DNA of 64,000 nt from a virus (taxonomy: Duplodnaviria; Caudoviricetes): the IMG/VR virus record IMGVR_UViG_3300015608_002982, positions 25,286-89,285 of that record. The stretch is one strand, 5' to 3'. This document shows, piece after piece, positions 193 through 52,348 of this stretch. Within the stretch, counting starts at the first letter, position 1. Every line of letters begins with the position of its first letter. The notes beneath the pieces are model-generated. The model saw nothing but the letters and a program-made list of their open reading frames with translations. It searched no databases and was not told where the DNA came from. A program made the translations under genes and the position numbers.

Positions 193-201
193 TAATATAT
201 A
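193..201 (+). promoter_or_regulatory. TAATATATA phage (putative late) promoter motif
   Basis: Exact motif abutting start of CTS-like ORF 201. Confidence 0.55.
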
Positions 202-824
202 TGATTATGAGAAACATCAAAAAATACGAAGACTTCCTAAATGAAGAAGTCAATTTAAAGAAAGCTTTAACAACTGGTGCTTTAGCTGCTGGTATGATGT
301 TGAGTAATCCAGTTTATTCACAGACAAAAACAAATACAACAAAAACAGAGGAAACTTCTAAAAAAGACAACCTATATTACATATCAACATCTTCTAAATC
401 AGGTCTTAATGGACCTTACAATAAAGATCCTGTTAAAAATATTAAATTCGCAGTTACACCTTATGTTGTTGATACATTAGGTTTGAGTTTGGTAGAGTTA
501 GAAAAAATTTATTTAAAAGCTCTTGAGACTGCCAAGATAAAACTATTATTATCTAGTAGTTTAAAAGATAAAAAAACATTTGATTATAAATCAAATGAAA
601 ATGGTATTATTGGTGGTATAGTTTCAATTGAAGAACTTCGTAGACAAGGTCCTGAATTTAGTAGTGATAAAGATTTATACATATCTTTTAGTTTTACTTG
701 TGATGGTAATGAATATGTTGTTGGTATAGAATGTTATCTCTCTGCTGCAAAAAGTGGAAATATCCCCTATAATGCTATAGGTGTTACAAAGGTATGTTGT
801 GGTCCTTGGGAGCCATTTGAATAA
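201..824 (+). CDS. Putative virion internal protein: CTS-like N-terminus followed by a cryptic signal peptide
   Basis: Starts MRNIKKYEDFLNEE then VNLKKALTTGALAAGMMLSNPVYS-Q. Confidence 0.6.
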   Translation: MIMRNIKKYEDFLNEEVNLKKALTTGALAAGMMLSNPVYSQTKTNTTKTEETSKKDNLYYISTSSKSGLNGPYNKDPVKNIKFAVTPYVVDTLGLSLVELEKIYLKALETAKIKLLLSSSLKDKKTFDYKSNENGIIGGIVSIEELRRQGPEFSSDKDLYISFSFTCDGNEYVVGIECYLSAAKSGNIPYNAIGVTKVCCGPWEPFE

Positions 825-1226
825 CTACCACCTCTTTTCTGTATCTTTTGGTGTGTGTCCTATTTTACTTACTACTAACTCATAATAAGCATCATTTACT
901 CCAAAATCAGATGAATAGACATAAAGATTAAACTCTTTTAGGTGTTCATTTACATCACGAATTAACTCAAATATTTTTGGCTCAACGTAATGTAAGACCG
1001 GTAAGTCACTTGGAAAATCTATATCTTTATGATTAAAAACCACAATAAAACATTTGTCATCTTTTTCTACTAATGATGATTGTAGAGAATCTTCAACATA
1101 ATATTCTAGCGAAGGAAACTCATCAGTTATGTGATAAAGTATTTCGGATAAGTCTTGGTGTGTAATACCAAAATCATTTTTTAATGAAAATCCTTCAGTT
1201 ATAAATTGTGAGTATTTCTTTATCAT
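825..1226 (-). CDS. Putative virion internal protein (CTS-like N-terminus)
   Basis: MIKKYSQFITE start; DLSEILYHITDE module shared with neighbouring paralogues. Confidence 0.6.
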   Translation of the reverse strand: MIKKYSQFITEGFSLKNDFGITHQDLSEILYHITDEFPSLEYYVEDSLQSSLVEKDDKCFIVVFNHKDIDFPSDLPVLHYVEPKIFELIRDVNEHLKEFNLYVYSSDFGVNDAYYELVVSKIGHTPKDTEKRW

Positions 1227-1336
1227 TAAAACATTTTAATTGATTGTATAAAAGCTACTTGTAGTCTTATCCAAGCTCTTTTTCTCCAAGGAAGTTCCTT
1301 GAACTCTTTTGTTAAAAAAATATCTTCTAATTCCGT
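1226..1336 (-). CDS. Possible 36-aa peptide with non-canonical ACG start
   Basis: Open frame (T)ELEDIFLTKEFKELPWRKRAWIRLQVAFIQSIKMF, TAATG-coupled to ORF 825..1226, AAATATATA at 1342-1350 upstream. Confidence 0.3.
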   Translation of the reverse strand, partial: TELEDIFLTKEFKELPWRKRAWIRLQVAFIQSIKMF

Positions 1337-1351
1337 AGTTCTATATATTTA

Positions 1352-1383
1352 TTTGTATATTTTACTTATTTACCTTATATTTG
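1352..1383 (+). promoter_or_regulatory. Bacteroidota housekeeping-sigma promoter (-33 TTTG / -7 TAnnTTTG)
   Basis: TTTG 1352-1355, 20-nt spacer, TATATTTG 1376-1383; ATG at 1403. Confidence 0.75.
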
Positions 1384-1402
1384 TATTCTAAATCACTACA
1401 AA

Positions 1403-1855
1403 ATGGAAGGTCGTAAACTTAAAAACTCAGATGCTCTCAAATTTATGTTTGCTGGTAAATCAATTTTTACTTTTCTGAATACTCAGTCTGGTAACCGATT
1501 TACTTTTAAGATTAAAGCCGCTAAAGATTCTAACCTTTTCTTTGTTAGTGTTCTTACACGACCTGATACATATACTTATATTGGAACTTGCATTGAAGGT
1601 AACTTCAAGCACGGTCGTAAATCCTCAATCTCAGAAGATGCTCAAAGTGTAAAAGTTTTTCAATATGTTTTAAGTAAACTAAAGGCTGGTAATTTAGCTG
1701 AGTTTATTGAGGTTTGGCACGAAGGTCATTGTGGTAAATGTGGTAAACGATTGACTGTACCTTCTTCTATTGAGAATGGTTTGGGACCAGAGTGTATTAA
1801 AACTCTTTCAAAGATGGAAAAAAGAGATAAATTTTTACAATTAATTTTGGGATAA
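1403..1855 (+). CDS. DUF6011-like zinc-finger protein with C-terminal RxxK/FLxxIL tag
   Basis: CGKCGKRLTVPSSIENGLGPEC motif; ends KRDKFLQLILG. Confidence 0.7.
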   Translation: MEGRKLKNSDALKFMFAGKSIFTFLNTQSGNRFTFKIKAAKDSNLFFVSVLTRPDTYTYIGTCIEGNFKHGRKSSISEDAQSVKVFQYVLSKLKAGNLAEFIEVWHEGHCGKCGKRLTVPSSIENGLGPECIKTLSKMEKRDKFLQLILG

Positions 1856-1856
1856 T

Positions 1857-2405: not shown

Positions 2406-2608
2406 GTAAACTTATTCTTTTCAATGTAGTTTATTATACCACGGATGAAAAGCTCTTTAATTACAGACTCACAGGTATATGTTTTGTCGTAATAAAATTC
2501 TATGTTATTTCTAACATTTTCCATTCCAACTTTATATAAAACTTCCAAAGGAAAGTTTTTATTTTCCACATTTCTTTCTAAAAGAAGTTCTTTAACTATG
2601 TGTATCAT
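2390..2608 (-). CDS. Hypothetical protein
   Basis: 72-aa ORF in the recA-direction operon. Confidence 0.5.
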   Translation of the reverse strand: MIHIVKELLLERNVENKNFPLEVLYKVGMENVRNNIEFYYDKTYTCESVIKELFIRGIINYIEKNKFTYLEK

Positions 2609-2627
2609 TAGAATGGATTATTTTTTA

Positions 2628-2804: not shown

Positions 2805-2853
2805 TTTATTTACATTTTATTTTTATAACCTCTTAGTATTAAAGAGGTTTTAA

Positions 2854-4083: not shown

Positions 4084-4107
4084 TTTAATAATTTTTATTT
4101 TATAATT

Positions 4108-4187: not shown

Positions 4188-4196
4188 TAATATATA
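4188..4196 (+). promoter_or_regulatory. TAATATATA phage promoter motif
   Basis: 4 nt upstream of ATG 4201. Confidence 0.55.
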
Positions 4197-4200
4197 GTAT

Positions 4201-5271
4201 ATGACTAAATATGAATTTTTAGAAAAGGCGAGAGAAAAACATGGATATAAGTATCAATATCCTAATCTAAAAGATAAGATATTATCAACTGATGATATAG
4301 ATATAGTTTATAATGGCGTTTTGTATAAACAAAAGGTTGTTAAACATATCCTACTAGGTAGATGTCCTGAAAAAAACACACCTGCTAAAACAACTGAGCA
4401 GTTTATTAAGGAAGCAAAGCAAGTTTGGGGTGATAAATATGACTACTCGTTGACCGAGTATAAAGGTGCATTAAAAAAATTAAAAATTATATATGATGGT
4501 ATTATATTTGAACAGACTGCCTCAAGTCACCTTAAATATGCACCAGAGTTAAGAATGAATAAAGAATATTTTATAAAGCTTGCTAAGTATAAATGGGGTG
4601 ATAGGTATGATTACTCACTAGTTGAATATACGGATTGTAAATCAAAGGTAAAAATAGTTCTTAAAGAGACGAATGAATTATTTGAACAGACACCGTTTAA
4701 TCATTTACAATATTCACCAGAAAATATAAATAAAAGAAAATCAACAGAACAATTTATTAATGAATCAAACGCAGTTCATGATTTTAGGTATAACTATGAT
4801 AAATCTGACTATATTTCTAATCAAACAAAAGTTACAATAACTTGCCCGGTTCATGGTGACTTTACACAGAGACCTTTATCACATATACAAGGGAATGGAT
4901 GTCCAAATTGTAATGAATCTAAAGGAGAAAAAGAAATAGCTAAGTTTTTAGATAAATATAATATTTTCTACGAGAGACAAAAAAAATTTCATGATTGTCG
5001 TAATATATTTGAACTGCCTTTTGACTTTTACATACCAAGTGCTAGAACCTGTATAGAGTTTGATGGAAAACAACACTTTCAACCTATGAAGTTTTTTGGA
5101 GGATTAAAAGCATATGAATCTCTTAAAATAAATGATAAAATAAAAGAGAATTATTGTGAGGATAATTACATAAATCTTATAAGGATAAGATACGATCAGT
5201 TTGATGAAATTTACCAGATATTGTGGAATAATTTAAAGAACTTGATAGTTCTTAACAATAAAATCAACTAA
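4201..5271 (+). mobile_element. Free-standing homing-endonuclease-like gene: DUF723-like repeats plus C-terminal PD-(D/E)XK nuclease
   Basis: Four FIxxAKxxWGDKYDYS-type repeats, CPVHG...GCPNC, FDFYIP...IEFDGKQH; lone plus-strand gene in a minus-strand block. Confidence 0.75.
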
Positions 5272-5856: not shown

Positions 5857-5858
5857 AA

Positions 5859-6083
5859 TTATTCTTCTGGTTTTCCAGGTATTTCTAAATATTGGTCTAA
5901 AACTTCTTTAGTTTCAATATCTGATTCATCGTATTTTACTTCATCATCATATAAACTTACCTTCTTATCAGAAATAAGTTTTTGTAAAAGAGGTTCTTGA
6001 TTAAATAAACCAACTTCTTCATCACTAAGTTTTATAGTCTTTGTGTGTGATTCTTTAATGAAATCTGCGTACTTCTTTATCAT
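5859..6083 (-). CDS. Small putative virion internal protein (CTS-like N-terminus)
   Basis: MIKKYADFIKE start. Confidence 0.6.
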   Translation of the reverse strand: MIKKYADFIKESHTKTIKLSDEEVGLFNQEPLLQKLISDKKVSLYDDEVKYDESDIETKEVLDQYLEIPGKPEE

Positions 6084-6840
6084 AATCTGCTGTTGTTTGT
6101 GGTTTTATTTTATAATATAATATAACTGCCAATATTAAGATATTAGTAGCATAGTTTAATAATAATGGTAAATCTAATTTATCATACACATAAGCAAGTG
6201 CGAATATTTCACCAAATGCCCAAAGTAAAACAAATCCCCATGAAATACCATATGAGTGTTTGTCTTTGAATGATTGCCAAGCCTGTGGAAGACCACATAT
6301 AGCTAAACATATAGAACCTAACCAACCAAGTATTTCAAAAATTGACATACCTTTTGTTTGTTCTGATATACCGGCTGATGATAACTCAGATAAGTCTTTT
6401 TGTTCAATTTTATAATTATACTTAGATTCAACGTGACTAGATAGTCTATCAAATAATTCTTTATATTCTTCTTGACTACCTGATTCTAATTTACTTTGAA
6501 TCTCTTGTAATATATTACTTAACTCTACATCTTTTGGTGTAAGTTCTGTTTTTCTAATATCTGATAATTCAATTACTTGATTCTTTGCAACAACTACACC
6601 GTCTTTAGCCATTGGATTTGTTAGCTCAGTTTTTATGGGAACTTGTGCTTGTAAGTTTGGAGAACTTGCTAATAAAGAAGCACCAAGTGTCGCACCAAGT
6701 ATTCCTTTTTTCAAATCAAGTTCTTCTTTTACTTTAGTAACTTTTACTTTAGGATCTGGCATCCAACCAAAAGTCTTTTTAGAAGGTTTTGGATTAAAAT
6801 TGGACTTAATGAATTGATTATATGTTTTAATATTTTTCAT
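6055..6840 (-). CDS. CTS-like protein with internal signal peptide and C-terminal PQ-loop (SemiSWEET-like) membrane domain
   Basis: MKNIKTYNQFIK; LKKGILGATLGASLLASSPNLQA-Q; GWLGSICLAICGLPQAWQSFKDKHSYGISWGF with three TM helices. Confidence 0.7.
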   Translation of the reverse strand: MKNIKTYNQFIKSNFNPKPSKKTFGWMPDPKVKVTKVKEELDLKKGILGATLGASLLASSPNLQAQVPIKTELTNPMAKDGVVVAKNQVIELSDIRKTELTPKDVELSNILQEIQSKLESGSQEEYKELFDRLSSHVESKYNYKIEQKDLSELSSAGISEQTKGMSIFEILGWLGSICLAICGLPQAWQSFKDKHSYGISWGFVLLWAFGEIFALAYVYDKLDLPLLLNYATNILILAVILYYKIKPQTTADYDKEVRRFH

Positions 6841-6845: not shown

Positions 6846-6854
6846 TATATATTA
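6846..6854 (-). promoter_or_regulatory. TAATATATA phage promoter motif
   Basis: 5 nt upstream of ATG 6840, overlapping the previous stop codon. Confidence 0.55.
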
Positions 6855-7751
6855 ATTTGATTTAACAGTTTTTCCAAACCAATTTGAACTTGTTATAAAC
6901 ATCTCACAAAAAGATATTTTATAATCAATTGGATTCATCTCATCATCCATTATCCAACCTTTGTAAAATCTAATTTTATCCATTCTATTATTATGACTTT
7001 TTTCAGGTATGTATATCTCTACACTATATCCTTTATCTGTCATAAAATCTTGTATTCTTTCTAAAGTTTCTTTTATATCATATATATTGAATGGTGACCT
7101 ATAGCCTTTTCTAAAATCATCAATAGTTACTTTAATTTTAATTTCACCTCTTTTAAAAGAAGGTATTTCATCAGCTTTAGTTCTAAAACCAATATCATTT
7201 AGTTCTAAGCAAATATCTCTTATCTCTTGAACCTCTGGTTCTTCTTCAATTAATGATTCCTCAACCGGTTCATCTTCAATTAAATCAGCCGCCTTATTAA
7301 TATTAACTTTAATTCTTTCAATTCTTCTGGCTTCCTTGTCATTTTCATATACTGACTTAACTAACTCAGCTAATTGTTTAAGAATCTTTGGCTTTGCTTT
7401 ACAATTTTCCGGTTCACCTTCACATATAACATTTAAGCCATAAAACTCTTTATCACTATATCTTGCTAACTTTTTACTAATTAAAAGATCTTGAGATTGT
7501 TCATCAAATCCATTTCCTCTCAATGAAATAACAGACCATAATTTAATAGGTGTATCTTCAAAATCAACTATCCATTTATCAATTTCAAAGTTATTTCCCT
7601 CTCTATTTCCAGGATCATAAGTTATCTTATATGGTGAAATACCTTTAACCTTTTTTAGACGAGCAATATACTCTAAAGCAATCTCATCATCGGCTGATGG
7701 TTTGCTTTTGAAAAGGTCAAAAAATCCTTCATATGTTTTAAGACTTCTCAC
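6852..7751 (-). CDS. Putative virion internal protein, paralogue of 8236..9048
   Basis: GTG start MRSLKTYEGFFDLF; shares DDxIxL...RLxKVK..PYxI and RIERIxxxINxxADLI with 8236..9048. Confidence 0.6.
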   Translation of the reverse strand: MRSLKTYEGFFDLFKSKPSADDEIALEYIARLKKVKGISPYKITYDPGNREGNNFEIDKWIVDFEDTPIKLWSVISLRGNGFDEQSQDLLISKKLARYSDKEFYGLNVICEGEPENCKAKPKILKQLAELVKSVYENDKEARRIERIKVNINKAADLIEDEPVEESLIEEEPEVQEIRDICLELNDIGFRTKADEIPSFKRGEIKIKVTIDDFRKGYRSPFNIYDIKETLERIQDFMTDKGYSVEIYIPEKSHNNRMDKIRFYKGWIMDDEMNPIDYKISFCEMFITSSNWFGKTVKSN

Positions 7752-8239
7752 TATTTTGGTAGTTTTATTTTTATTGTAATATTTCTTTTTCTATTAGGTG
7801 AATCTGTTTTACTTATTGTTTTGCCAATCATTGTCATAAATTCTGACCACTCTTTATCACTGGAACTACCTTCATCAAACCCCCAACCAATAAAAAATGA
7901 CATCTTACAATTATAAATTTCTAATTTAGATTTACAATCTAATAATAGCTCATTTACTTCATTGTCCGATATTGAATTAGGTGAGTAAGTCATTTCAAAT
8001 GATATTGCTGATTTATTACCTGAGAAATTAAAGTCTCCAATTTTATGATTTGATACTTCTGATTTTCCCCAAATAACATCATCTGATGCAAAAATACCAC
8101 CTAGTATATTACCTTTCTCAATTCTTGACTCGTCAATAATATCATATAAACATTCAATAATATCGTTATATGTTACTTCAACTTTTTCCTTTTTTTTGAA
8201 AAGGTCAAAAAATCCTTCGTATGTTTTTAAGTTTTTCAT
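7751..8239 (-). CDS. Putative virion internal protein (CTS-like N-terminus)
   Basis: MKNLKTYEGFFDLF start, near-identical to neighbour. Confidence 0.6.
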   Translation of the reverse strand: MKNLKTYEGFFDLFKKKEKVEVTYNDIIECLYDIIDESRIEKGNILGGIFASDDVIWGKSEVSNHKIGDFNFSGNKSAISFEMTYSPNSISDNEVNELLLDCKSKLEIYNCKMSFFIGWGFDEGSSSDKEWSEFMTMIGKTISKTDSPNRKRNITIKIKLPK

Positions 8240-9048
8240 TTGAATTTATTAGGAAAGATGTGTCTCCATTCATGTCCTTGAGGAACATCAGATGTTTTTA
8301 CACCAAATATCTTTTTTTCTGGACAAGTATCTTTACCGTCCATTAAGAAGTTGTTATTACAAGCCCAAACTTCAACATTTCTTTGTAATAATTGACCAAC
8401 TGAAAAAGGAAATCTAATACCAGTTTCATTTTCAATATTAGTAATTCTACCATCCGGTGATTTAGTTACAACTATTTCCAATCTTGGGTTTCTTTTATTA
8501 GTGAATTTAACTTCTCTTTCGTGTAATCCTTCATCAATTAAGTCCGCTGATGGATTAATTTCAGTTTGTATTCTTTCAATTCTTTTTCTTTCTCTATCCT
8601 CATTATAGATTTTATCTACTAATTGAAATAATTTTTTACGATAAGATTCTTTGGATCTAATTCTCTCAGCTAATCCTGAGTTATTACCAATAAAAAATTT
8701 CCAAGGATTTTTACACTTTTCATAGCCAACCATTACTCCGTTTTGATTAACTAAAGTGTGTCTATCATTTGATATTACAATGTCAACATCATCAAATCTA
8801 ACTAAATATATTTTACTGAAATATTCAGTTTCTTCGTTATTTCTATGATCTGGTGTTGGATCGCCTACAAATTTACTCATCCAAGATGGTAGTTGGGCAG
8901 CGGTATTCATTATCTCATCTATCTGATAAGGATTTCTGTCTTTAACTTTTTCAAGACGGTGTATAATATCTAGTGTGATTTTATCATCACCGGTATCTTT
9001 CTTAAAATAATCTAAGAAACCTTCGTTATATTTCTTTAAGTGTTTCAT
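8236..9048 (-). CDS. Putative virion internal protein, paralogue of 6852..7751
   Basis: MKHLKKYNEGFLDYF start; shared N-terminal half. Confidence 0.6.
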   Translation of the reverse strand: MKHLKKYNEGFLDYFKKDTGDDKITLDIIHRLEKVKDRNPYQIDEIMNTAAQLPSWMSKFVGDPTPDHRNNEETEYFSKIYLVRFDDVDIVISNDRHTLVNQNGVMVGYEKCKNPWKFFIGNNSGLAERIRSKESYRKKLFQLVDKIYNEDRERKRIERIQTEINPSADLIDEGLHEREVKFTNKRNPRLEIVVTKSPDGRITNIENETGIRFPFSVGQLLQRNVEVWACNNNFLMDGKDTCPEKKIFGVKTSDVPQGHEWRHIFPNKFK

Positions 9049-9056: not shown

Positions 9057-9515
9057 TTATTTATTTTCAATTATCATGAAATCAAACTCGCCATTTTTAT
9101 GAGTTGATAATAAAAAGAAATAACCCATAGACTCAATTCTATATTGAACATCTTTAGTTATTTCAAAAAATTTATATAAATTATTATTTGGTACACCAAA
9201 TACTCTTTGATTATCACCTCTTTGTATATCGGTTGCAAAGTAACCATCTTTAAAAAATTCACTAAAAGAAACTTGAATTCCTTTATGAAGATTTGGTTGG
9301 CTTTCCCAATAGTTAGCCGGAATGTTGACAAATCCTTTAGTCAATTCATTACCAACTGGCATGAAATCTTGACCATCAAAAATCTTAAATGCTTTATATT
9401 TCAATGTATATTTAGCGTCACATTCTACATACTCAGATAAAATGTCGTGGAGTATTGATTCGTCAGAGAAAATATCTTCTTCGTTTGATTCATTGAATTT
9501 TTTTAAGTGTTTCAT
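9057..9515 (-). CDS. Putative virion internal protein (CTS-like N-terminus)
   Basis: MKHLKKFNE; start refined to ATG 9515. Confidence 0.6.
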   Translation of the reverse strand: MKHLKKFNESNEEDIFSDESILHDILSEYVECDAKYTLKYKAFKIFDGQDFMPVGNELTKGFVNIPANYWESQPNLHKGIQVSFSEFFKDGYFATDIQRGDNQRVFGVPNNNLYKFFEITKDVQYRIESMGYFFLLSTHKNGEFDFMIIENK

Positions 9516-9521: not shown

Positions 9522-9530
9522 TATATATTA
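9522..9530 (-). promoter_or_regulatory. TAATATATA phage promoter motif heading the 9515->6852 cluster
   Basis: 6 nt upstream of ATG 9515. Confidence 0.55.
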
Positions 9531-15277: not shown

Positions 15278-15661
15278 GTGACTATGAATGAAGGCGATGT
15301 AGTTATAGAAATGACACCGTTTATATTTGAAGATGGTAATACCTACTACTTTCAGATATTAAAGCGTAGTCACTCTAATGATTATCATGATATTTATGTA
15401 TATGAGAAGATTAGAGAAGAAAAAAGCTTTTTTGGTATAAAAAGAGTTAATGAGTATTTTAAACAGATTAATAAAAGTCCAGAATTGGTATCAGTTGATT
15501 TAAATACTGATAAAATTAAAAGAGATATCAAAAAAATATTGATAGCAACAAAAGCTTTTCACCAATTGAAAAATTGGGATGGTTTTGTTGGTGATATACC
15601 TAGTGATGTAAAAGTGGCTCTTAAACGAGAGAACTCTTTGAAAAACATTTTAGGTGAGTAA
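15278..15661 (+). CDS. Hypothetical protein with C-terminal tag
   Basis: Ends KRENSLKNILGE. Confidence 0.6.
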   Translation: MTMNEGDVVIEMTPFIFEDGNTYYFQILKRSHSNDYHDIYVYEKIREEKSFFGIKRVNEYFKQINKSPELVSVDLNTDKIKRDIKKILIATKAFHQLKNWDGFVGDIPSDVKVALKRENSLKNILGE

Positions 15662-15679
15662 TATATACATTATGATTAA
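15659..15679 (+). repeat. TAATATATACATTATGATTAA promoter-plus-start cassette (identical copies at 36519-36539 and 43644-43664)
   Basis: 21-nt exact identity at three loci, each spanning the motif and ATG of a CTS-like gene. Confidence 0.7.
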
Positions 15680-16157
15680 ATTTAGTGAAATGGTTAGTGA
15701 AAATGTAAGTGATAAATCTAATTTTAAGTTAGGATTAGATGTACATGGTGTTGTTGATGCTCTTCCTGAGTTCTTTGCTTTTTTAGCAGACTCATTTATT
15801 AAAAATGGAGGAGAAGTACATATTTTAACAGGTGGACATTGGAATGAAGAATTTGAGAATCAACTAAAGTCTTTAGGTATTAAATGGACTCATAAGTTCT
15901 CAGTCTATGATTACTTGATTGAAAAAGAAACCGGAATAGTTGGTGAAATAGAATTTCCAGATGGAACTATTCAAAAGAAGTTTGAAGATGGTGCTTGGGA
16001 TAAAGTAAAAGCAGAATATTGTAGACAGAATAATATATCACTTCATATTGATGATACTCTTATCTATAATGATTTCTTTACAACACCATTTGCTAGATTG
16101 TGGTCACACAATCAAAAACCTAAAGCATCTCATAAAGATGTTAGACATTTAGACTAA
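15672..16157 (+). CDS. HAD-like hydrolase with CTS-like N-terminus
   Basis: Start refined to MIKFSEMVSE; LGLDVHGVVD, HILTGG, HIDD motifs. Confidence 0.65.
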   Translation: MIKFSEMVSENVSDKSNFKLGLDVHGVVDALPEFFAFLADSFIKNGGEVHILTGGHWNEEFENQLKSLGIKWTHKFSVYDYLIEKETGIVGEIEFPDGTIQKKFEDGAWDKVKAEYCRQNNISLHIDDTLIYNDFFTTPFARLWSHNQKPKASHKDVRHLD

Positions 16158-16636
16158 TGATTAATAAGATTAATAAATTTTTTGAATTTAACCCTTACGA
16201 AAGCAAAATGAAACAATCAGCTGGTGTTATAATTATTTTAAATAATGAAAAAATATTAATTTGTCATCCATCAAATGCTAAGTGGATGGCATCATATTCA
16301 TTTCCAAAGGGCGGAATTGATGAAGGTGAAACTATTAAGCAAGCTGCTATAAGAGAGTTGTTTGAAGAAACATCAGTCCTTGTTGACGAATCTAAAATAT
16401 CAAAAGAGCCTTTAGTTCTTGATTACATGAACTACAAGAAAAAAGATTTAGTTTATAAAAGAATATACCTTTACACTATGTATATTAATGATGTTTCTGA
16501 AATTGGATTAGACTCTGAGGTAATTCCTAAAGAAAAACTGCAATTAGAAGAAATTGACTGGGCTGGTTTTGTAACTAAGGAAGAAGCTAGAGTTAGACTT
16601 TTTCATAAGAGTGTTCCTATACTTGATAAGATTTAA
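16157..16636 (+). CDS. NUDIX hydrolase with weak CTS-like N-terminus
   Basis: FPKGGIDEGETIKQAAIRELFEETS Nudix box; MINKINKFFE start. Confidence 0.85.
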   Translation: MINKINKFFEFNPYESKMKQSAGVIIILNNEKILICHPSNAKWMASYSFPKGGIDEGETIKQAAIRELFEETSVLVDESKISKEPLVLDYMNYKKKDLVYKRIYLYTMYINDVSEIGLDSEVIPKEKLQLEEIDWAGFVTKEEARVRLFHKSVPILDKI

Positions 16637-19838: not shown

Positions 19839-20408
19839 GTGGATAAGTTCTCAAAATTAAAACCGAAATCAGAGTTTGAACAAGATAAAGAAAAAGTACT
19901 TTACCAAGACAATCATTTTCAAATAGTTCAGTTTGAGGACTGGTCAATTCTAAAAGAAAGAGACGCTGTTGTTTGTATTCCTTATTTGATTGAAACTAAT
20001 CAAGTAGTTTTAAGATATGAATATATTCCTACGTTTAAGTATGCTGATGGTCAAGAATATCATCTAACTTTAGTTTGTGGTGGTATTGAACAGGGTGAAA
20101 CCGTTGAGAAGGCTTTGAGAAGAGAGCTTGAAGAAGAAGCGGGTATTGTTTTAAGAGAAGACTTTCAATTTGAAGAAGTTTTAAAGCCACTTTTTATTAA
20201 TAAAGCATCGGCTAATAAATATTATCCTTATATCTTACCTCTTAATGAAAGAGACTATCACGAGGTAGTTGCTAAAGGTGACGGTTCTAAAGAAGAGCAA
20301 ATGTCTAAATCTGTTAAGGTTGATGCTAAATATATTAGCTCGTTAAATGCTTCCGATTTGATAACAGACTATATGTTGTTAAAGTTGAAAGAGTATTTGA
20401 ATGCTTAA
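19839..20408 (+). CDS. NUDIX hydrolase (ADP-ribose pyrophosphatase-like)
   Basis: GGIEQGETVEKALRRELEEEAG Nudix box. Confidence 0.85.
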   Translation: MDKFSKLKPKSEFEQDKEKVLYQDNHFQIVQFEDWSILKERDAVVCIPYLIETNQVVLRYEYIPTFKYADGQEYHLTLVCGGIEQGETVEKALRRELEEEAGIVLREDFQFEEVLKPLFINKASANKYYPYILPLNERDYHEVVAKGDGSKEEQMSKSVKVDAKYISSLNASDLITDYMLLKLKEYLNA

Positions 20409-21742
20409 TTTTTTAAGTATCTTTCTAAATCTCCTTTTATTTCTCTATTAAGTGCTTTTGAATCTACATCACCGTAGTCTGAGAAATTTGGATCCATTCT
20501 ATAAGTGAAGTATTGTTCTCCACACCATTGTTTGAATATATCAACTAAGCTATTACCTTTTAATCTTTCAGCATCTTCATTATCTATCCAATCATTGTTG
20601 TAAGGAATAGTATAAAATGTATCAATATCTTGATACTCTTTTCTTGTTTGAGTACCGTCAGCATTTTTTTGAGTGTAGTATTTAGTAACCTCTCTCTTTT
20701 CCTTTGTGAATGTAAATTCTTTTTCAACGATTTCATCAAATTCATCAAGAATTGATTGATAGTTTGCATCAACGTGAGCATTCATTTCCCAATCACCAAT
20801 AGTTTGTTTAACCTCTTGACAGATTTCAGAATCTTTACACATTGATTTTAAAGTTTCATAGAATCTCTCTTTTAGTAAAAACTCAATAGCTTCTTCTTCA
20901 GACATACCGGCTATGTTATCATTCTCAATTTGCTCTAAGCCACCCATTTCTTTAATCATAGCTTTAACTAATAATTGAGCATTCTCTTTATCTAATGTAT
21001 ATTGAAACATTGATACAGTATCTGGTTGATAGTCAGATCCGTAATAGTTATCATACATATTTTCTTCACCTTTTACTAAAATATCTTTATAACTGGAATC
21101 TCTTGATAACATAATATCAGACATATCTTCTATATCTAATTCGACATAAACTTTGTCTTCTTTTATAATAGCATCTGACCAATTGTAATATTCAACAAGA
21201 TCTTTTTCTTTGAATGTAACTGTTTCTTTACATTTAGCAAAAATAGCAATATAATCACCATTTGCTTCTAATAATTCAGGTTCTGATGAATTCCAATTAT
21301 CTGTATAGAAAAAACCACCTTTAATTTCTATTTCATCTACATCTCCAAGATTACCATCTTGGTCATGTATTGATATTTCTACATTAGCTTCTTCTTGTAT
21401 AATTGAACAAGCAAATTGAAATGTAGAAGTAACATCAGTGTCTTTAATCTTACGACCGTATGCTTTGTGAATAGATATCCAGTAGGCAGGTATAACCTCA
21501 TCACCTGATTTAACCTTTTCCGTAAAAACATCTTTTTCGGTTTCTACCCATTCACCATTCTTATAAGCACCTTTTTTAACTTTTTCTGAAAAGCCGAATT
21601 CTACTGAAACATAATATCCAGCATCTGTTATCTCTAACATATATTCTTCAATATCTTGTTCAGTGAGTTTCCATAACTTACCTTCCTCAATATCTTCTTT
21701 GAGTGATTCTTTAATAAAGTGGATATACCTTTTAAGTTTCAT
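20405..21742 (-). CDS. Putative virion internal protein (CTS-like N-terminus)
   Basis: MKLKRYIHFIKE; TTATATATA at 21748-21756; very acidic. Confidence 0.6.
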   Translation of the reverse strand: MKLKRYIHFIKESLKEDIEEGKLWKLTEQDIEEYMLEITDAGYYVSVEFGFSEKVKKGAYKNGEWVETEKDVFTEKVKSGDEVIPAYWISIHKAYGRKIKDTDVTSTFQFACSIIQEEANVEISIHDQDGNLGDVDEIEIKGGFFYTDNWNSSEPELLEANGDYIAIFAKCKETVTFKEKDLVEYYNWSDAIIKEDKVYVELDIEDMSDIMLSRDSSYKDILVKGEENMYDNYYGSDYQPDTVSMFQYTLDKENAQLLVKAMIKEMGGLEQIENDNIAGMSEEEAIEFLLKERFYETLKSMCKDSEICQEVKQTIGDWEMNAHVDANYQSILDEFDEIVEKEFTFTKEKREVTKYYTQKNADGTQTRKEYQDIDTFYTIPYNNDWIDNEDAERLKGNSLVDIFKQWCGEQYFTYRMDPNFSDYGDVDSKALNREIKGDLERYLKN

Positions 21743-36503: not shown

Positions 36504-36531
36504 ATTTAAAATTTAATTTAATATATACATT

Positions 36532-36897
36532 ATGATTAAGAAATATCTTCAATTTATAAAAGAAGCTGATGAGCCTGTAAAAGATAATAATAAATATACA
36601 GAGCTTAAAGAAGAAATCAAATCAATGATTGAAAAAACTATCGAGAAGAGTGGTGGTGAGTATAAATCATTTGTAGATAAGTTTATTAAGTCACCTGATG
36701 ATGTTAAGATAGAGGGTCTTATAAATGATTCAGATATATATGACTTCTATCTTAAATTTAGAAATGATATAGATGAATTGCTTAATGATATTAAGTACTT
36801 TGATGAAGTTCCAAGCGAGTCTAATACTTTTGGACTATATGACTATATCATAAATGGCACAGAGAAAGCAATTATAGAGGCTGTTAAACTTTTATAA
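36532..36897 (+). CDS. Putative virion internal protein (CTS-like N-terminus)
   Basis: MIKKYLQFIKE; TAATATATA at 36519-36527. Confidence 0.6.
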   Translation: MIKKYLQFIKEADEPVKDNNKYTELKEEIKSMIEKTIEKSGGEYKSFVDKFIKSPDDVKIEGLINDSDIYDFYLKFRNDIDELLNDIKYFDEVPSESNTFGLYDYIINGTEKAIIEAVKLL

Positions 36898-40600: not shown

Positions 40601-40609
40601 TAATATATA
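40601..40609 (+). promoter_or_regulatory. TAATATATA phage promoter motif
   Basis: 21 nt upstream of ATG 40631. Confidence 0.55.
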
Positions 40610-43641: not shown

Positions 43642-43656
43642 TTTAATATATACATT

Positions 43657-44625: not shown

Positions 44626-44937
44626 ATGAAATACTTAAAGAAATTTAACGAAAATCAAGAACAACAAGATCCTGTATTTGCTTTAACTAAAATTAAAGAA
44701 GAATACTCTGATAATAAAGTTAAAGAAATGTTAGAAAAAGAGATTAAACAGTGGATTCCAGATGAGAACGATCCAGACTTTTATTCTACTTCAGGAAATG
44801 GCGAAGCTGAGGATGTGATTATTAATCAACTTATTGGTTGGTTTGAAAAAAAGTATTATTCTTTGTCTGATGAAAACTTTGAAGAGGTTAAAAGTTTAAT
44901 TCTTAAAGACTATGAGTTCTTAAACTTTAACTACTAA
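44626..44937 (+). CDS. Putative virion internal protein (CTS-like N-terminus)
   Basis: MKYLKKFNE start. Confidence 0.6.
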   Translation: MKYLKKFNENQEQQDPVFALTKIKEEYSDNKVKEMLEKEIKQWIPDENDPDFYSTSGNGEAEDVIINQLIGWFEKKYYSLSDENFEEVKSLILKDYEFLNFNY

Positions 44938-44948: not shown

Positions 44949-44978
44949 AAACTTTTCTATAACAAGAAAAGTTTTTTT
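44949..44978 (+). terminator. Probable intrinsic terminator
   Basis: AAACTTTTCT-ATAACA-AGAAAAGTTT followed by TTTT; weak AT-rich stem. Confidence 0.45.
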
Positions 44979-44982
44979 GTTT

Positions 44983-45423
44983 ATGGAAAAACCAAGTAAA
45001 GAAGATATAATGAAAAAGTGGGCACCTATTTTAGGTTCTATGGGTATGACCGGCTCACAATTAGATAACTTATCACAGTTAGCCGAAAATCAATCAAATG
45101 AAATATTAAAAGAAAATACACAAGCATCTGAGTTTCCAAGTATATTACCAATTGCTATGCGAGTAGCCGCTAAAACAATATCAAATGACTTAATATTTGC
45201 TTCACAAGAAGAAATTGATGAAGTTAAAAAGAAAGTCCAGTCTGAAAATCGTGATGGTAAAATTGAAGCTATTATCGAAGGTGGTGAGTTTGTTGAAAAG
45301 AAGTTAGAAGATGATGAAGAGTATAAAGAACTGATGAAGAAAGGTGTTACACCAATGTCTGGGCCATCTGGTACATTATTTTATTTAGATTATAAATATG
45401 GAAAAGACGAAGACAATATTTAA
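44983..45423 (+). CDS. Truncated T4 gp23 (major capsid)-like protein with inserted RDGKIEAII tag
   Basis: KEDIMKKWAPIL, LAENQ, ILPIAMRVAAKTISNDL, GVTPMSGPSGTLFYLDYKYGKD align to gp23 N-terminal motifs; start refined to ATG 44983. Confidence 0.75.
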   Translation: MEKPSKEDIMKKWAPILGSMGMTGSQLDNLSQLAENQSNEILKENTQASEFPSILPIAMRVAAKTISNDLIFASQEEIDEVKKKVQSENRDGKIEAIIEGGEFVEKKLEDDEEYKELMKKGVTPMSGPSGTLFYLDYKYGKDEDNI

Positions 45424-46742: not shown

Positions 46743-47027
46743 ATGATAATAAGTGAGATATGTATAAGAGGCTTTAAATCTTTTGGTAATAATGAGTCCG
46801 TTCTGAAATTAAATACTGAAAAAGGAGAATTGATTCTTCTTGTGGGAAATAACGGAGCCGGAAAATCACTCATTCCTACTACTGAGATTGAGGTTGAAAT
46901 TAATTTAGAAAATCTAAAATTAAAGGATTTTAATAATTTTTTGGAAATAATGGGGAGGGAAAGGATATATATTGAATATATAAAAGAAAATAACTATTCA
47001 CTATATGAGCAATATATTAATCAATGA
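46743..47027 (+). CDS. sbcC: gp46/SbcC N-extein (41 aa, to Walker A Lys) fused to split-intein N-fragment (46866..47027)
   Basis: MIISEICIRGFKSFGN...LVGNNGAGK then intein block A-like SLIPTTEIEV; start refined to ATG 46743. Confidence 0.8.
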   Translation: MIISEICIRGFKSFGNNESVLKLNTEKGELILLVGNNGAGKSLIPTTEIEVEINLENLKLKDFNNFLEIMGRERIYIEYIKENNYSLYEQYINQ

Positions 47028-48546
47028 AAAACAACTAGAAGATTATCTTTCAGATTTTCATCCAGTTAAAAAAAATGAAATTTTAGAAAAATTCAAAGAT
47101 TTTAATTTTAATTGTGGTAAATTTTCTTTTAGAGATAAAATGAAGAGAATTATATCAATGCCTAAATTTGGCAAAAGGACAATTAATTACTGGGTAAGTA
47201 GGGGATGGTCAGAGGAAGAAGCTTTATTAAAAAGAGTACCTGATAACAGAGATCCTGAAACATCACCAATGAATAAATTTTTTTGGATAAAAAGAGGACT
47301 TACAGAAGAAGAAGCTTTATTAAAATTAAAATCACAAAGAAAATCTAATAAGGAATATTGGACGAAAAGGGGATTTTCAGAAACCGAAGCATTGCAAAAA
47401 TCAGTTGAATTTCAAAAAGACTCTAATTCAGCATTTATTAATAGAATTAACTCAGATATGGATTACCGAGAATTGATAAATTCTAAAAGGAATAATAATA
47501 AAAAATATTGGATCAATCTTGGGTTTTCAGAAGAAGAGTCGATAAAAAAAGTATCGGAGAGACAATCGACATTTTCTTTAAAAAAGTGTTTGGATAAATA
47601 TGGTGATATAGAAGGTCATAAAATTTGGCAAAATAGACAGAAAAGATGGCAAAAATCTCTCTTGCTTAGTTTATATAATGGTAAAGACAATAAGGATTCA
47701 AAGACTATAGAGTTCTTCAAAGGAAAATATAAAGAAAATTGGATAGACCATTACTTTAATAAGATATCATTTAAAGAAAAAGATAAAATATTGTTTTTAA
47801 CATCATTTTATAATTATAAAGATTTAATAGACTCATTAATTGCCGATAAATTGAAATTAGTAGAAATATCATCAATTATTCGGTATAAAATTATACAAGA
47901 GATATATTCTTGTACAATAGATGATATGTTTGAATATTTACATAATAATTATGAAAAATATTCAAAAACACCTGAATATTATCATAAAAATTTCCCCGAT
48001 TGGATAGAAAGATTTATAAATGACAATTCTTTTAAAAATAAAAATGAAATAAAAAAATTATTAAACTTCAAGGATTATAAAGAAATGATTATCTACATGA
48101 TTGATAATTATAAAATTACTGATATAAATATTTATCTACAAAGTAAATTGATATCATATTTTTATAATACAAATCATAAGGAAATGTTCAACTTTTTAGT
48201 AAATAGTGACCCAACAATAAAATCAAAATATGGACATATTAGATATTTTAATGGACACATTTGTCGAAGTGATTCGGAATTTTTATTGGCAAAGTTTTTA
48301 CTTAATAATGATATAAAATATGAATATGAGAAGAGATATAAAAATACATTAAAAAGATGTGATTTCTATCTTATAGATTTTGATCTTTATATTGAATATA
48401 CAGGAATGAAGAAAAATGAAATTTGTAATAAGAAGTATAAAGAGAAACAGAAATTTTGTCTAGAAAATAATATCAATTGTATATTTTCTAACAATATTCA
48501 AGAAATAAAAAATAAAATATTAAATGAAATTAAAATTAACAATTGA
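47005..48546 (+). mobile_element. Free-standing homing-endonuclease-like gene separating the split intein halves
   Basis: Four YWxxRGxSEEEA repeats, two about 70-aa helical repeats, C-terminal RSDSE...RCDFYL...YIEY PD-(D/E)XK domain; GAATATATA at 46974-46982. Confidence 0.75.
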
Positions 48547-50521
48547 ACAATTGAACAAACTTCAAGAATCAATTAAATTAATCGATAATTATGAAATAAA
48601 TGTTTCAACTGAAAATGGATTTAAAAAAATCAAAGCTGTTGGTGTAACAAGTAGAAACTCAGAAAAAATAAGAATTAAAACAAAGGATTTTGAATTGGTA
48701 GGGTCTCCATTTCATAGAGTAAAATATCAAAATAATTGGTTATATCTAAAAGATATTAAAATAGGAGATAAAGTAAATACAAAAAATGGAATACAAGAAA
48801 TTTTAGATATTAGTTTTGATAATAATAAAGAAGACTTATGGGATATAGAAGTTGATGGACATGAATATTATTCAAATGGAATCTTAAGCCACAACTCTTC
48901 TCTACTAGACTCATTTGATTACACACTTTACGGTAAAGTAAGAGGTCGTAAAAAAAGATGGGCTACTTTATCAACACTACCAAATAGAATTAATGGCGAA
49001 CTTCTTAATAGAATCAAATTTGTTTCTAATAGTACAGAGGTTGAAATAAAAAGAGGTATCTCACCAAGCGTACTTGAGTTGTGGGAGAATGGAGTTCTTA
49101 ATGAAAGAGCTGGTAAAGCCAATGTAGATGAAAAGATTGAGAATTACATTGGAATGGATATTGAGACATTCAAATCATTTATTTCAATGTCTATTAATGA
49201 TTTCAAAAATTTTATTTCATTATCAAACGAAGAAAAACAACTTCTTCTTGATAAGTTATTTAATCTTGAAGTCATCAACATTCTCAACAGTATCTTGAAA
49301 GATATTGCTAAAAATAATAAAGTAAGAGCAGCTTCATTTGATGCTGAAATTAGAACTTTAGATGATTCAATTGCCTCTATTAAAAGGTCAATTGAAAAAG
49401 CACTTGAAAGAGAAAGACAAGAAGCACAATTAGCACTTGAAAGAGAAAAAGAAGATATACAAGCTGAGATTGATAGAATTACAAATGAAATGAATTCTAG
49501 AAAAGATGAGTATAAAGCTCTAAAAGAAAAGATTGATAAAATCAAAGAAAAAGATGCTGAACTCGTTGATGAGATGGATAAGGAAAAAAGACAGTTAATT
49601 AACTGTCAAAATGATATCAGAAATGTTCAAAAAGAATTAGACTTGTATGATTCTGGAAAATGTCCGACCTGTAAAACAGATTTCAACTCTGAACACTTTT
49701 CTAATTTAAGAACTACTTTAGAAGAAAAGAAATTAGGATTTGAAAATATCAAACTTGAAATTGAAGCAAACATTACTAAAGTGAAAGAAAGACAAACTAA
49801 GTTAAAATCACTTTCTGAATCAACAACAACTGCATTTAATGATTTAAGTTATTTATTAAAGACTCACAAGTCTGAAATTGACAAACTAAATCAAAAGAAA
49901 GCATCACAGACCGTTACTGTTAATACAACTCCTTCTGTTAATATTCAAGAGTTTCAAAATACAATTGAAGAGCTTGAAGAAAAGAAAATAGTATCAACTG
50001 ATAATATAAGTGTTTGTAAAGAAAAAGAACTTTACTACAAAGAGTTAAATCGTATCTTTGGTGAAGATGGTGTTAAGAAGTCTATTATTGCTGGTATTAT
50101 TAAGCCAATAAACCATTTTATTTCTGAAAATGTTAAAAAGATGGGACTTCCATTTGAAGTTAAATTAGATGAGACTTTTACAGCTGAGATTAAACAATTA
50201 GGTTCATCAATTGAACATGACTCACTTTCTACCGGTGAGACTAAAAAAGTAAATATTAGTATTTTAATTGCTTATCTAAAGCTAATTAGAACTAAACGAC
50301 ATATCAATATTTTGTTCTTAGATGAGGTTTTTTCATCAATTGATATCGAGGGTATAGATTCTATTTTGGCACTCTTAAAATCGTTTGCAAACGATTATAA
50401 CATCAATATCTTTGTTGTACATCATGCTATTTTGAATCAAGAAATGTTTGATAGAATATTAAAGATTAATAAAGAGGTTTTCTCTTCAATAGAAGAAGTA
50501 AATTTGGATTATGCAAGTTGA
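48524..50521 (+). CDS. sbcC: Split-intein C-fragment (48524..48895, 124 aa) fused to gp46/SbcC/Rad50-like C-extein
   Basis: LTIEQL, VSTENGFKKI, SPFH, WDIEVDGHEYYSNGILSHN|SSLLD; zinc hook CPTC, LSTGE signature, LFLDEVF, VVHH. Confidence 0.9.
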   Translation: MKLKLTIEQLNKLQESIKLIDNYEINVSTENGFKKIKAVGVTSRNSEKIRIKTKDFELVGSPFHRVKYQNNWLYLKDIKIGDKVNTKNGIQEILDISFDNNKEDLWDIEVDGHEYYSNGILSHNSSLLDSFDYTLYGKVRGRKKRWATLSTLPNRINGELLNRIKFVSNSTEVEIKRGISPSVLELWENGVLNERAGKANVDEKIENYIGMDIETFKSFISMSINDFKNFISLSNEEKQLLLDKLFNLEVINILNSILKDIAKNNKVRAASFDAEIRTLDDSIASIKRSIEKALERERQEAQLALEREKEDIQAEIDRITNEMNSRKDEYKALKEKIDKIKEKDAELVDEMDKEKRQLINCQNDIRNVQKELDLYDSGKCPTCKTDFNSEHFSNLRTTLEEKKLGFENIKLEIEANITKVKERQTKLKSLSESTTTAFNDLSYLLKTHKSEIDKLNQKKASQTVTVNTTPSVNIQEFQNTIEELEEKKIVSTDNISVCKEKELYYKELNRIFGEDGVKKSIIAGIIKPINHFISENVKKMGLPFEVKLDETFTAEIKQLGSSIEHDSLSTGETKKVNISILIAYLKLIRTKRHINILFLDEVFSSIDIEGIDSILALLKSFANDYNINIFVVHHAILNQEMFDRILKINKEVFSSIEEVNLDYAS

Positions 50522-50801
50522 GGTTTTAATAATTGAGTATTTAAATATAAAACTTGAAAAGGTTAAATTTATTAAGAATCAAAACTTTCAATTTGCTGCC
50601 GAAGTTCGAGATAAAGAAAGAGTAAAATCAAAAGAAATATGCGATATTATTAACCCAGGTGGTGAGTTTGTTAATTACAATACTTATGATAAAATAATAG
50701 ATGATTATTGTAAGCAGGTTTATAACTGTAGTACTTATGATTATTCAACATGTGTTAAAGCAATTATGAGAGCTAAAAAACTAAATGATTTAGGTATATA
50801 A
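50511..50801 (+). CDS. Tagged small protein with UVR (UvrB/C, ClpC-type)-like motif
   Basis: KVKFIKNQNFQFAAEVRDKE; ends MRAKKLNDLGI. Confidence 0.55.
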   Translation: MQVEVLIIEYLNIKLEKVKFIKNQNFQFAAEVRDKERVKSKEICDIINPGGEFVNYNTYDKIIDDYCKQVYNCSTYDYSTCVKAIMRAKKLNDLGI

Positions 50802-50804
50802 AGA

Positions 50805-50831
50805 AAAAAGTCAGATTAAATCTGACTTTTT
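50805..50831. terminator. Bidirectional intrinsic terminator
   Basis: AAAAAGTCAGA-TTAAA-TCTGACTTTTT between convergent genes. Confidence 0.8.
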
Positions 50832-50836
50832 ATATT

Positions 50837-52348
50837 TTAATTACAATCGTAACAACTTACTTCACCTCGTCCATCACAGTTAGAACATTCTTCTCTACCT
50901 GAACCACCGCAATCTGAACACTCAGATTTTCCGGTTCCACTACATTCAGGACAATCTACTTCATTACCATCGTCATCAGTAGTTTTACCGGAACCATCAC
51001 ATTCACCACAATCAACTTCACCATCACCATCACAGTTATTACAATCGTGACTTCCTCTACCATAACAATCATCACATTCTACAGTTCCTCTACCACCACA
51101 AGTTTCACAATCACCAACATCATATCCACCACCTGTGTCTTCTAAGGTAATAGCACCACCTCTGTTTTCATTTGATAAAATACCAGTACCTTCTTTATAA
51201 TATTTAAGAGTATCTAAGTAAGGATAATGTCTGTAATTTTTCTGATCTAAATTTACTGTTAAATCTAAATCAACTATTGTACCATCTGGTGCAATACATC
51301 TACCGATATCTGAGCTACTATTGTGATATTTTGCATACCAACCATTTTCTTTAGCAAATTCTCTAAATAAGTTTACATCAGAGTCATTAATAGTATAAAT
51401 TCTATCCATGAACTTTTTACCATCGTTTAGAGTCCATAAAAGTGATCTACCTACAATTTTACTATCATCATCCTGAGATTTGAAAATAACTAAACTAACT
51501 TGATTTGGATTAGCTGTATAAATTTCTAACCAAGATTCATCGGCACCTGCCATACAAGAAGAGCCTAAAGTACCTCTTCTTTCATAGTAGTTTTTACTAC
51601 CATACCAGTAATGTATATCATCACCACTTACTACATTAAAATAAGAAAATTTATCATTTAACTTATCTATAGTTGCCTTGAATAAATTTACAAATGCTTC
51701 AAAGTCTTTATCTAAAATGTCTGTAACACCGGCTGATCTTAATAATGCTCTTGCTCCTCTACCAACTTTAATATCTTGTCTATTTTTAGACCAAACTTCT
51801 CTCATTAAAGCAGATACTGTATCAATAAGCCTTAATTTATCTTGGTTATAAACACCTTGTCCTAATTCAACTTCTTGATTATCTGTGCCAGTACCACCAG
51901 TCCATTTAATCCAGAAATATGTTTTACCTGAAGTTTCAGATGTTACCTTAGCTACAACTGTTCCAATATCTCTTGAGTTTGGCTTATAAGGTTCTGATCC
52001 TTCTTCATATGTATATCCTAATTTATCAAATATTCCTTTATTAGTATCTTTGTGTTTTAACCAACCACCACCAGAACCAGTGAACCTATAAAGTTCTTTT
52101 GTTTGACCTAATATTTCTTGAGCTTTTCTATCAGGAATAAAGTTTAACGAGTCATTTTTATCAGATGTCACATCAAAATAATTTGATTGTACAGGTAAGT
52201 CTTTATTTTCAATTTCTAATAATTTTTTAGCTACAGGGCTATCTATTTTAGACAAGGCTCTTCTTAATTTATCAGAGTAAATAACATTAGATTCTAGTAG
52301 TAAGAAATCTAAAGATTCATTTATGAAATCGGAATATTTTTTAATCAT
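50837..52348 (-). CDS. CTS-like SCM/GRSLLW/MDRIY-family protein with C-terminal DnaJ-type zinc repeats
   Basis: MIKKYSDFINE; SSCM, GRSLLW, FMDRIY, YPYLDT; seven CxxCxGxG plus terminal CxxC. Confidence 0.65.
   Translation of the reverse strand: MIKKYSDFINESLDFLLLESNVIYSDKLRRALSKIDSPVAKKLLEIENKDLPVQSNYFDVTSDKNDSLNFIPDRKAQEILGQTKELYRFTGSGGGWLKHKDTNKGIFDKLGYTYEEGSEPYKPNSRDIGTVVAKVTSETSGKTYFWIKWTGGTGTDNQEVELGQGVYNQDKLRLIDTVSALMREVWSKNRQDIKVGRGARALLRSAGVTDILDKDFEAFVNLFKATIDKLNDKFSYFNVVSGDDIHYWYGSKNYYERRGTLGSSCMAGADESWLEIYTANPNQVSLVIFKSQDDDSKIVGRSLLWTLNDGKKFMDRIYTINDSDVNLFREFAKENGWYAKYHNSSSDIGRCIAPDGTIVDLDLTVNLDQKNYRHYPYLDTLKYYKEGTGILSNENRGGAITLEDTGGGYDVGDCETCGGRGTVECDDCYGRGSHDCNNCDGDGEVDCGECDGSGKTTDDDGNEVDCPECSGTGKSECSDCGGSGREECSNCDGRGEVSCYDCN

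Follow-up and report, generated by a model that had tools for sequence, protein, structure and literature searches.

Unrelated proteins of a Mahaphage-type huge phage share an N-terminal tag resembling the T4 capsid targeting sequence

The window analyzed here comprises 64,000 nucleotides (nt), bases 25286 to 89285 of an 89,285-bp virus contig with 28% GC (IMG/VR record IMGVR_UViG_3300015608_002982), and many of its genes open with a shared N-terminal peptide, hereafter the tag, that resembles the capsid targeting sequence (CTS) of phage T4. The nearest public DNA relatives of the contig are LR756502, LR745206, and LR756504, "uncultured phage" genomes of 634 to 642 kb, and the phage of which the window is a fragment is thus a huge phage of the Mahaphage type, a clade whose predicted hosts are Bacteroidetes (PMC7162821). 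A second IMG/VR contig of 143 kb (G002) is syntenic with the 89-kb contig at 75 to 90% nucleotide identity and extends about 106 kb farther on one side; CheckV-type completeness values (45% for this contig and 25% for G002) were not used to infer genome size.

A preliminary description of the window had listed about 16 T4 CTS-like starts. All 16 of its coordinates are boundaries of open reading frames (ORFs), the low coordinate having been quoted for minus-strand genes, whose N termini lie at the high coordinate; the tag is clear in 14 of the 16 and weak in the ORFs at 15672 and 16157. The genes are as follows, lengths being given in amino acids (aa).

207-824, plus strand: tagged ORF, MRNIKKYEDFLNEE; Ala/Gly-rich hydrophobic stretch behind the tag; alternative ATG at 201
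825-1226, minus strand: tagged ORF, MIKKYSQFITE, 133 aa; orthologue in G002 with 83% identity
5233-5856, minus strand: tagged ORF, MKRIKTYKLFLEG, 207 aa
5859-6083, minus strand: tagged ORF, MIKKYADFIKE, 74 aa; tag kept (MIKKWNQFINES) in the LR756502 orthologue at 46% identity
6055-6840, minus strand: tagged ORF, MKNIKTYNQFIKS, with Ser replacing Glu; C-terminal PQ-loop domain with three transmembrane (TM) segments
6852-7751, minus strand: tagged ORF, RSLKTYEGFFDLF, GTG start; paralogue of 8236-9048
7751-8239, minus strand: tagged ORF, MKNLKTYEGFFDLF
8236-9048, minus strand: tagged ORF, MKHLKKYNEGFLDYF
9057-9515, minus strand: short-form tag, MKHLKKFNES
15672-16157, plus strand: weak member, MIKFSEMVSE, with M replacing F; promoter-like motif TAATATATA ending 4 nt upstream
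16157-16636, plus strand: doubtful member, NUDIX protein with the start MINKINKFFEF; the N-terminal 20 aa precede the NUDIX fold
20405-21742, minus strand: tagged ORF, MKLKRYIHFIKE, 445 aa, conserved family
36532-36897, plus strand: tagged ORF, MIKKYLQFIKE, 121 aa
43657-44622, plus strand: tagged ORF, MIKRYLDFIKE, 321 aa, highly conserved
44626-44937, plus strand: short-form tag, MKYLKKFNEN, 103 aa
50837-52348, minus strand: tagged ORF, MIKKYSDFINE, 503 aa; tag kept in the LR756502 orthologue at 45% identity

The first of these genes likely starts at ATG 207 (MRNIKKY...) rather than at 201, and the N-terminal 53 aa of its product match MRNIKSYKDFANEE of LR756502. The weak member at 15672 has a counterpart in LR756502 with a similar start, MIKFSNMINE.

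The consensus of the tag is M-x(0-3)-[IL]-K-[KRT]-[YF]-x-x-F-[ILV]-x-E, which in some proteins is shortened (MKHLKKFNE, MKKFSDF..., Y-K-I-F-E, or [YF]-N-E, the last being common). When the whole 89-kb contig was searched in six frames with the strict expression [ILMV]K[KRT][YF]..F[ILFV].[ED], 10 matches were returned, 7 of them inside the window, and all 10 lie 0 to 3 residues behind the ATG that opens an ORF (63 to 571 codons). Reading by eye showed the tag or its short form on 22 of 108 ORFs in the contig, roughly every fifth gene, and the tagged proteins range in length from 66 to 650 aa. In 20 of the 22 proteins no hydrophobic stretch follows the tag, unlike a Sec or lipoprotein signal peptide.

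Four columns of the tag are conserved best: Y/F (56 of 59), F (54 of 59), I/L/V (45 of 59), and the terminal E (45 of 59). With the Glu position left free in the search, Glu occupied it in 29 of 41 tags and Asp in none; genome-wide, the Glu:Asp ratio is 0.92, Asp being slightly commoner. This retention of Glu and complete avoidance of Asp points to a Glu-specific cut, unlike a generic acidic helix. Conservation drops behind the Glu, a result that is partly circular because the matches were chosen with a position-specific scoring matrix (PSSM) spanning columns -3 to +7.

The T4 genes ipII and ipIII both encode the start MKTYQEFIAE, as the preliminary description had claimed. The review PMC9026906 bears out two further statements made there, namely, that the first ten residues suffice for incorporation into the T4 head and that gp21 cuts after L/I-x-E; it adds that residues 4 and 7 are the main determinants of targeting, that residues 8 and 10 are those of processing, and that Asp at position 10 blocks processing. 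Set against that account, the four best-conserved residues of the tag (Y, F, I, and E) correspond to Y4 and F7 of the T4 signal, which serve targeting, and to I8 and E10, which serve processing. Like the T4 CTS, the tag occupies the extreme N terminus, spans about ten residues, is carried by otherwise unrelated proteins, and places an aromatic residue, a +3 Phe, a +4 Ile/Leu, and a +6 Glu at equal spacing before an [IL]-x-E end. Unlike the T4 CTS, it is usually preceded by 1 to 3 extra residues ([IL]-K-[KRT], often MK[HY][LI]K) and has shorter variants (Y-K-I-F-E and [YF]-N-E). Beyond the tag, no similarity of the tagged proteins to ipII or ipIII was found.

As a positive control, the motif was searched in T4 in its DNA form. 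It occurs at 5 sites, three of which fall at codons 2 to 10 of ORFs, and these three are ipII, ipIII, and gp61.1. The last encodes a hypothetical protein of 54 aa (NC_000866 18966-19130, minus strand) with the CTS-like start MKTFKEFIKE.

In the relatives, the tag is more abundant than had been estimated. A PSSM built from the 14 best tags and applied to LR756502 at a score threshold of at least 12 found 32 sites, of which 29 are N-terminal. A loose core, [ILV][KR].[YFW] within the first ten residues, occurs in 151 of the 949 ORFs of LR756502 versus 18 to 26 in control windows placed internally in the same ORFs; there is therefore an excess of about 130 tagged genes, or 14% of this 642-kb genome, so that the set that the preliminary description had called unusually large turns out to exceed its estimate, both here and in the contig (about 22 ORFs). 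The dominant form of the tag in LR756502 is MK[HY][LI]Kx[YF]. The numbers of starts with each of two patterns, and the corresponding control numbers, in five huge-phage genomes are as follows.

LR756502: MK[HYN]hKx[YF], 64 (control 1); K.[YF]..Fh.E, 18 (control 14)
LR756504: MK[HYN]hKx[YF], 36 (control 3); K.[YF]..Fh.E, 23 (control 14)
LR756500: MK[HYN]hKx[YF], 16 (control 1); K.[YF]..Fh.E, 15 (control 7)
LR756501: MK[HYN]hKx[YF], 5 (control 2); K.[YF]..Fh.E, 36 (control 4)
Lak-A1: MK[HYN]hKx[YF], 4 (control 0); K.[YF]..Fh.E, 6 (control 6)

A scan of IMG/VR for the exact pattern MIKKYxxFIxE gave 74 matches, about 70 of which are true ORF starts, on AT-rich contigs of up to 483 kb in which TAATATATA often lies 3 to 5 nt upstream. 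The same pattern matched only 26 times in 596 Gb of bacterial and archaeal genomes, with 1 or 2 plausible real starts; 13 of the 26 are a single internal motif of a conserved cellular protein, and most of the others are not in ORFs. Being nearly absent from cellular genomes, the tag is therefore a phage feature and not a host sorting signal. The internal motif, MIKKYPTFIEETALLED..., lies about 110 to 140 residues into the conserved protein in thirteen bacterial genomes and is unrelated to the phage tag; it shows the need to check the position of every match. Another class of false positives for tag scans occurs in the window itself at 4201-5271 (plus strand), where internal TEQFIKEAK and TEQFINES score with the tag PSSM inside a repeated module, the TEQFI stretches being followed by ...W/HG/D... 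as in endonuclease-linked repeats.

The lineage that bears the tag has, like T4, a gp20/gp21/gp23 head module, which is present in both G002 and LR756502. LR756502 contains, in T4 order, a Portal_T4 gene (1e-58), a 699-codon protease ORF (225272-227371), and a Gp23 capsid gene (4.5e-28). Over its first 200 residues, the product of this 699-codon ORF has a weak match to Peptidase_S77 (22.7 bits, below the Pfam cutoff of 27) and aligns with T4 gp21, GEFDHP and VSSRAAG standing opposite GELNHP and VSSRGLG of T4, motifs that we take to carry the catalytic His and Ser. The protease region matches 752 phage records, many of them annotated as prohead protease. In LR756502 and G002, the head module has tagged genes to either side of it, and a conserved tagged protein of 157 aa is encoded directly upstream of the portal gene.

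Unlike that of T4, the huge-phage protease is fused to a scaffold-like region, and this region carries the motif of the tag. In LR756502 it consists of eleven tandem 14-residue repeats, NIxYSEY[IL]AExLDK, each of which contains Y-x-x-Y-[IL]-A-E, matching the residue pattern Y-x-x-F-[IL]-x-E of the tag, and each of which ends in a T4-type [IL]-A-E site. The repeats number 11 in LR756504, 13 in LR756501, and 10 or 11 in each of four relatives (G001 to G004, the syntenic G002 among them), in which the protease-scaffold ORF is 80 to 85% identical to this one; altogether, 10 to 13 tandem repeats are present in 6 of the 7 Mahaphage-type genomes examined, the seventh (LR756500) having degenerate copies. 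T4 likewise has many [IL]AE sites in its scaffold protein, gp22, and IAE forms the end of its targeting signal. Since the scaffold repeats share the pattern of the tag, the tag resembles one repeat unit grafted onto unrelated proteins. Lak-A1 encodes a related protease, but where the others have Y..Y[IL]AE repeats it has an acidic low-complexity region. None of the other four genomes has so few tags (only 4 sites for the first motif, and a number equal to the control for the second), and these low counts would agree with a tie between tag and scaffold.

A cleavage site in the huge-phage capsid protein was sought by alignment with T4 gp23 and rejected, the alignment (LTE|A in T4 and LPG|A here) being too weak. 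Within its first 150 residues, the capsid protein has a single [IL]-x-E, a conserved I-N-E near residue 43, and this is no more than suggestive. A small ORF at window positions 44977-45423 (plus strand), directly behind two tagged genes, has a weak Pfam match to Gp23 (14.6 bits), and its N terminus (...KKWAPILGSMGMTG...) resembles the N-terminal propeptide region of the major capsid protein of the clade (...KKWGPVLENMGVTG...).

The tagged proteins themselves are nearly all ORFans. Searches of those in the window against Pfam and PHROGs returned only the PQ-loop and NUDIX domains and two weak PHROGs of unknown function; among 143 loosely tagged ORFs of LR756502, Pfam domains were likewise found in a minority only, and the set includes two NUDIX proteins. 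PARG and RNase H were discarded as tagged proteins of LR756502, both being chance matches of the loose expression without true tags. One of two lysozymes of LR756502 is tagged (489926-490687, minus strand; MRYIKTFNED..., 253 aa) and has an N-terminal extension of 110 aa; the other (153839-154300, minus strand) is untagged and of ordinary size (153 aa). In the AlphaFold model of the 321-aa protein (pLDDT 80), the tag is predicted with low confidence as a short helix (residues 2 to 9) that stands ahead of, and apart from, the folded body. A Foldseek search of this model against the PDB gave no match, and the 503-aa protein matched only viral hypothetical clusters in the ESM Atlas.

The motif TAATATATA, which occurs in 22 copies in the window versus 6.5 expected, was linked to the tag in the preliminary description. 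This link holds in part: six of the listed genes (207, 6840, 9515, 15672, 36532, and 43657) have the motif ending 4 to 6 nt upstream of their ATG, the distance at 36532 being 4 nt, and the motif ends 30 nt before 52348, while a one-base variant, TTATATATA, precedes 21742. It also precedes untagged genes, namely, that for UvsX (4108, minus strand) and large genes at 40631 and 61763, and is therefore not specific to the tag. The copies by the listed genes, followed by two further copies in the window, are as follows.

193-201, plus strand: TAATATATA
6846-6854, minus strand: TAATATATA
9522-9530, minus strand: TAATATATA
15659-15667, plus strand: TAATATATA
36519-36527, plus strand: TAATATATA
43644-43652, plus strand: TAATATATA
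52379-52387, minus strand: TAATATATA
4188-4196: further copy of TAATATATA
40601-40609: further copy of TAATATATA

TAATATATA is a general promoter-like motif of the phage, and it could not be assigned as a late promoter because it also stands ahead of UvsX. Its distance from the start codon is bimodal, 0 to 9 nt or 15 to 30 nt, over 211 copies in LR756502, where the portal gene has it 22 nt upstream of the start. The mRNA from the short-distance class would have no leader or almost none.

There is good computational support for reading the tag as a capsid targeting sequence of the T4 type, and we think it probable, with appreciable doubt, that these phages use a T4-type tag for capsid targeting and cleavage on a far larger scale. 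The preliminary description had arrived at the same reading, which the correspondence with the T4 residues, the head module of the relatives, the scaffold motif, the preference for Glu over Asp, and the recovery of ipII and ipIII uphold for the tag itself; the tie to TAATATATA that had been part of it stands only in part. By this mechanism, the tag would form a short amphipathic helix in which the two aromatic positions (Y/F at 0 and F at +3) probably dock the nascent protein on the scaffolding core of the prohead, the tag acting as one scaffold repeat unit grafted onto unrelated proteins. The gp21-type prohead protease would then probably cut at the [ILV]-x-E end, after Glu, and the body of the protein would stay inside the head, packed with the DNA, to be ejected into the host, where it may act as an effector. 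With about one-fifth of the genes of the fragment carrying a T4-like tag, these phages would probably pack dozens to more than 100 different proteins with their DNA.

Several features of the system weigh against such a role. In T4 the internal proteins are highly basic, but here the cargo is acidic: the mature pI of the tagged proteins of the contig is 4.3 to 7.8, the median pI in LR756502 is 5.1 for tagged and 5.9 for untagged proteins (P = 2e-5), and these proteins thus fall outside the small, highly basic DNA-associated class of T4 IPI-III. Only three or four T4 genes carry the CTS, as opposed to 14 to 20% of huge-phage genes. The short forms (MKHLKKFNES, ...YKIFES) deviate from the T4 pattern and may behave differently; the T4-type head module was found in the relatives and not in the 89-kb contig itself; no cultured relative was found; and the contrast with Lak-A1 is a single, phylogenetically confounded data point. 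Awkward for head cargo, too, are the product of ORF 6055-6840, a membrane protein with a C-terminal three-TM PQ-loop (SemiSWEET-like) domain, and another tagged protein with a signal-peptide-like stretch. In ORF 6055-6840 and in ORF 207-824, an Ala/Gly-rich hydrophobic stretch lies 15 to 45 residues past the tag, ends in ...SNP...Q, and resembles a signal peptide whose N-region is unusually long.

The membrane protein, the protein with a signal-peptide-like stretch, the acidity of the cargo, and the presence of about 130 tagged genes in LR756502, a number more typical of a general sorting signal, would all be easier to accommodate if the tag were a recognition or sorting signal that led elsewhere within the phage's own program (for instance, to a replication compartment, a membrane site, a chaperone, or degradation at a set time) and its likeness to T4 a convergence on a generic amphipathic N-terminal helix. 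We regard this as unlikely, because the final position strictly prefers Glu to Asp, which suggests cleavage specific for Glu and not a generic helix, the motif is repeated 10 to 13 times in a protease-linked scaffold and picks out ipII and ipIII in T4, and no alternative candidate receptor was identified. The tagged proteins might also represent one diverged paralogous family in which the N terminus is merely the best-conserved part, as true paralogues (6852-7751 and 8236-9048) and a second pair of tagged proteins with a common 48-aa stretch could suggest. Once the tag is removed, however, these are the extent of it, similarity being detected in only two pairs among 22 proteins, and the wide range of lengths and the unrelated known domains (PQ-loop here and lysozyme in LR756502) render common descent very improbable.

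A further possibility is that the shared start is a by-product of gene birth or expression, a promoter-plus-start cassette (TAATATATA, 4 to 5 nt, ATG AAA ...) having been copied before new genes or favored for near-leaderless translation, with the peptide of minor importance. Such a process could explain why 41% of the LR756502 genes with the motif ending 0 to 9 nt before the ATG are tagged compared to 9% of those without it, why the third base of codon 3 shows a nucleotide-level enrichment for C, and why tagged genes are clustered in this genome, in arrays of up to ten (49 adjacent pairs versus 19.6 expected). But TAATATATA is missing next to roughly half of the tagged genes in LR756502, and 53 of these 66 genes abut a co-directional upstream gene; lying mostly inside operons, they are not leaderless, so that leaderless starts do not account for the tag. 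Replacements within the tag are conservative (I/L/V, Y/F/W, and K/R), synonymous codon use at its conserved residues equals the genome background, and the tag is kept both in LR756502 orthologues at 31 to 46% overall identity and in 120 of 120 homologues of the 321-aa protein among the matches listed (574 homologues in total). Judged by these comparisons, selection is acting at the amino-acid level, on the peptide, and we consider the cassette a quite improbable source of the shared start.

The proposed loading by a T4-type tag has partial counterparts elsewhere. The giant phages phiKZ, 201phi2-1, and SPN3US are also large, have head proteins numbering about 50 or more, and package ejection proteins in bulk; processing is by a diverged gp21-type protease that cuts after Glu at S/A-x-E (PMC9026906), in contrast to the [ILV]-x-E of the huge-phage tag. 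In the text consulted, their propeptides are not described as sharing a uniform N-terminal tag. No sequence relation of the cargo to the head proteins of these three phages was found. Similar in organization are the hypervariable internal-protein loci of T-even phages, which likewise consist of arrays of unrelated small ORFs with a conserved start and often a promoter-like motif, and the notion that a CTS lets T4-like phages load varied proteins appears in PMC9026906 and PMC3012670. Here, unlike at those loci, tens to more than 100 genes are spread genome-wide in a distant lineage predicted to infect Bacteroidetes. In the literature that we searched, no paper connected huge phages with capsid targeting.

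Should the tag function as it does in T4, sequence alone would be enough to list the proteins that ungrown phages package and probably eject, and hundreds of small proteins of unknown function would be flagged as acting at the first moments of infection. The likeness of the tag to the scaffold repeat suggests that loading follows a simple rule, in which a scaffold unit is mimicked, and such a rule might be reused for protein delivery, and the T4 head-loading mechanism would, if this is true, be old and greatly scaled up in the largest known phages. A bolder version, which we offer tentatively and think somewhat doubtful as a whole, is that Mahaphage-type phages load at least 100 proteins (about 14% of their genes) by means of a grafted scaffold repeat unit, Y-x-x-aromatic-[IL]-x-E, that their packaged and ejected proteome is thereby readable from sequence, and that the arrays of acidic ORFans constitute a fast-evolving first-strike arsenal against host defenses.

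Apart from the tagged genes, the window contains an SbcC/gp46-like gene that is present as two ORFs, at 47005-48546 and 48524-50521. Across this region (47005-50521), DNA similarity to Mahaphage genomes is confined to the second half.

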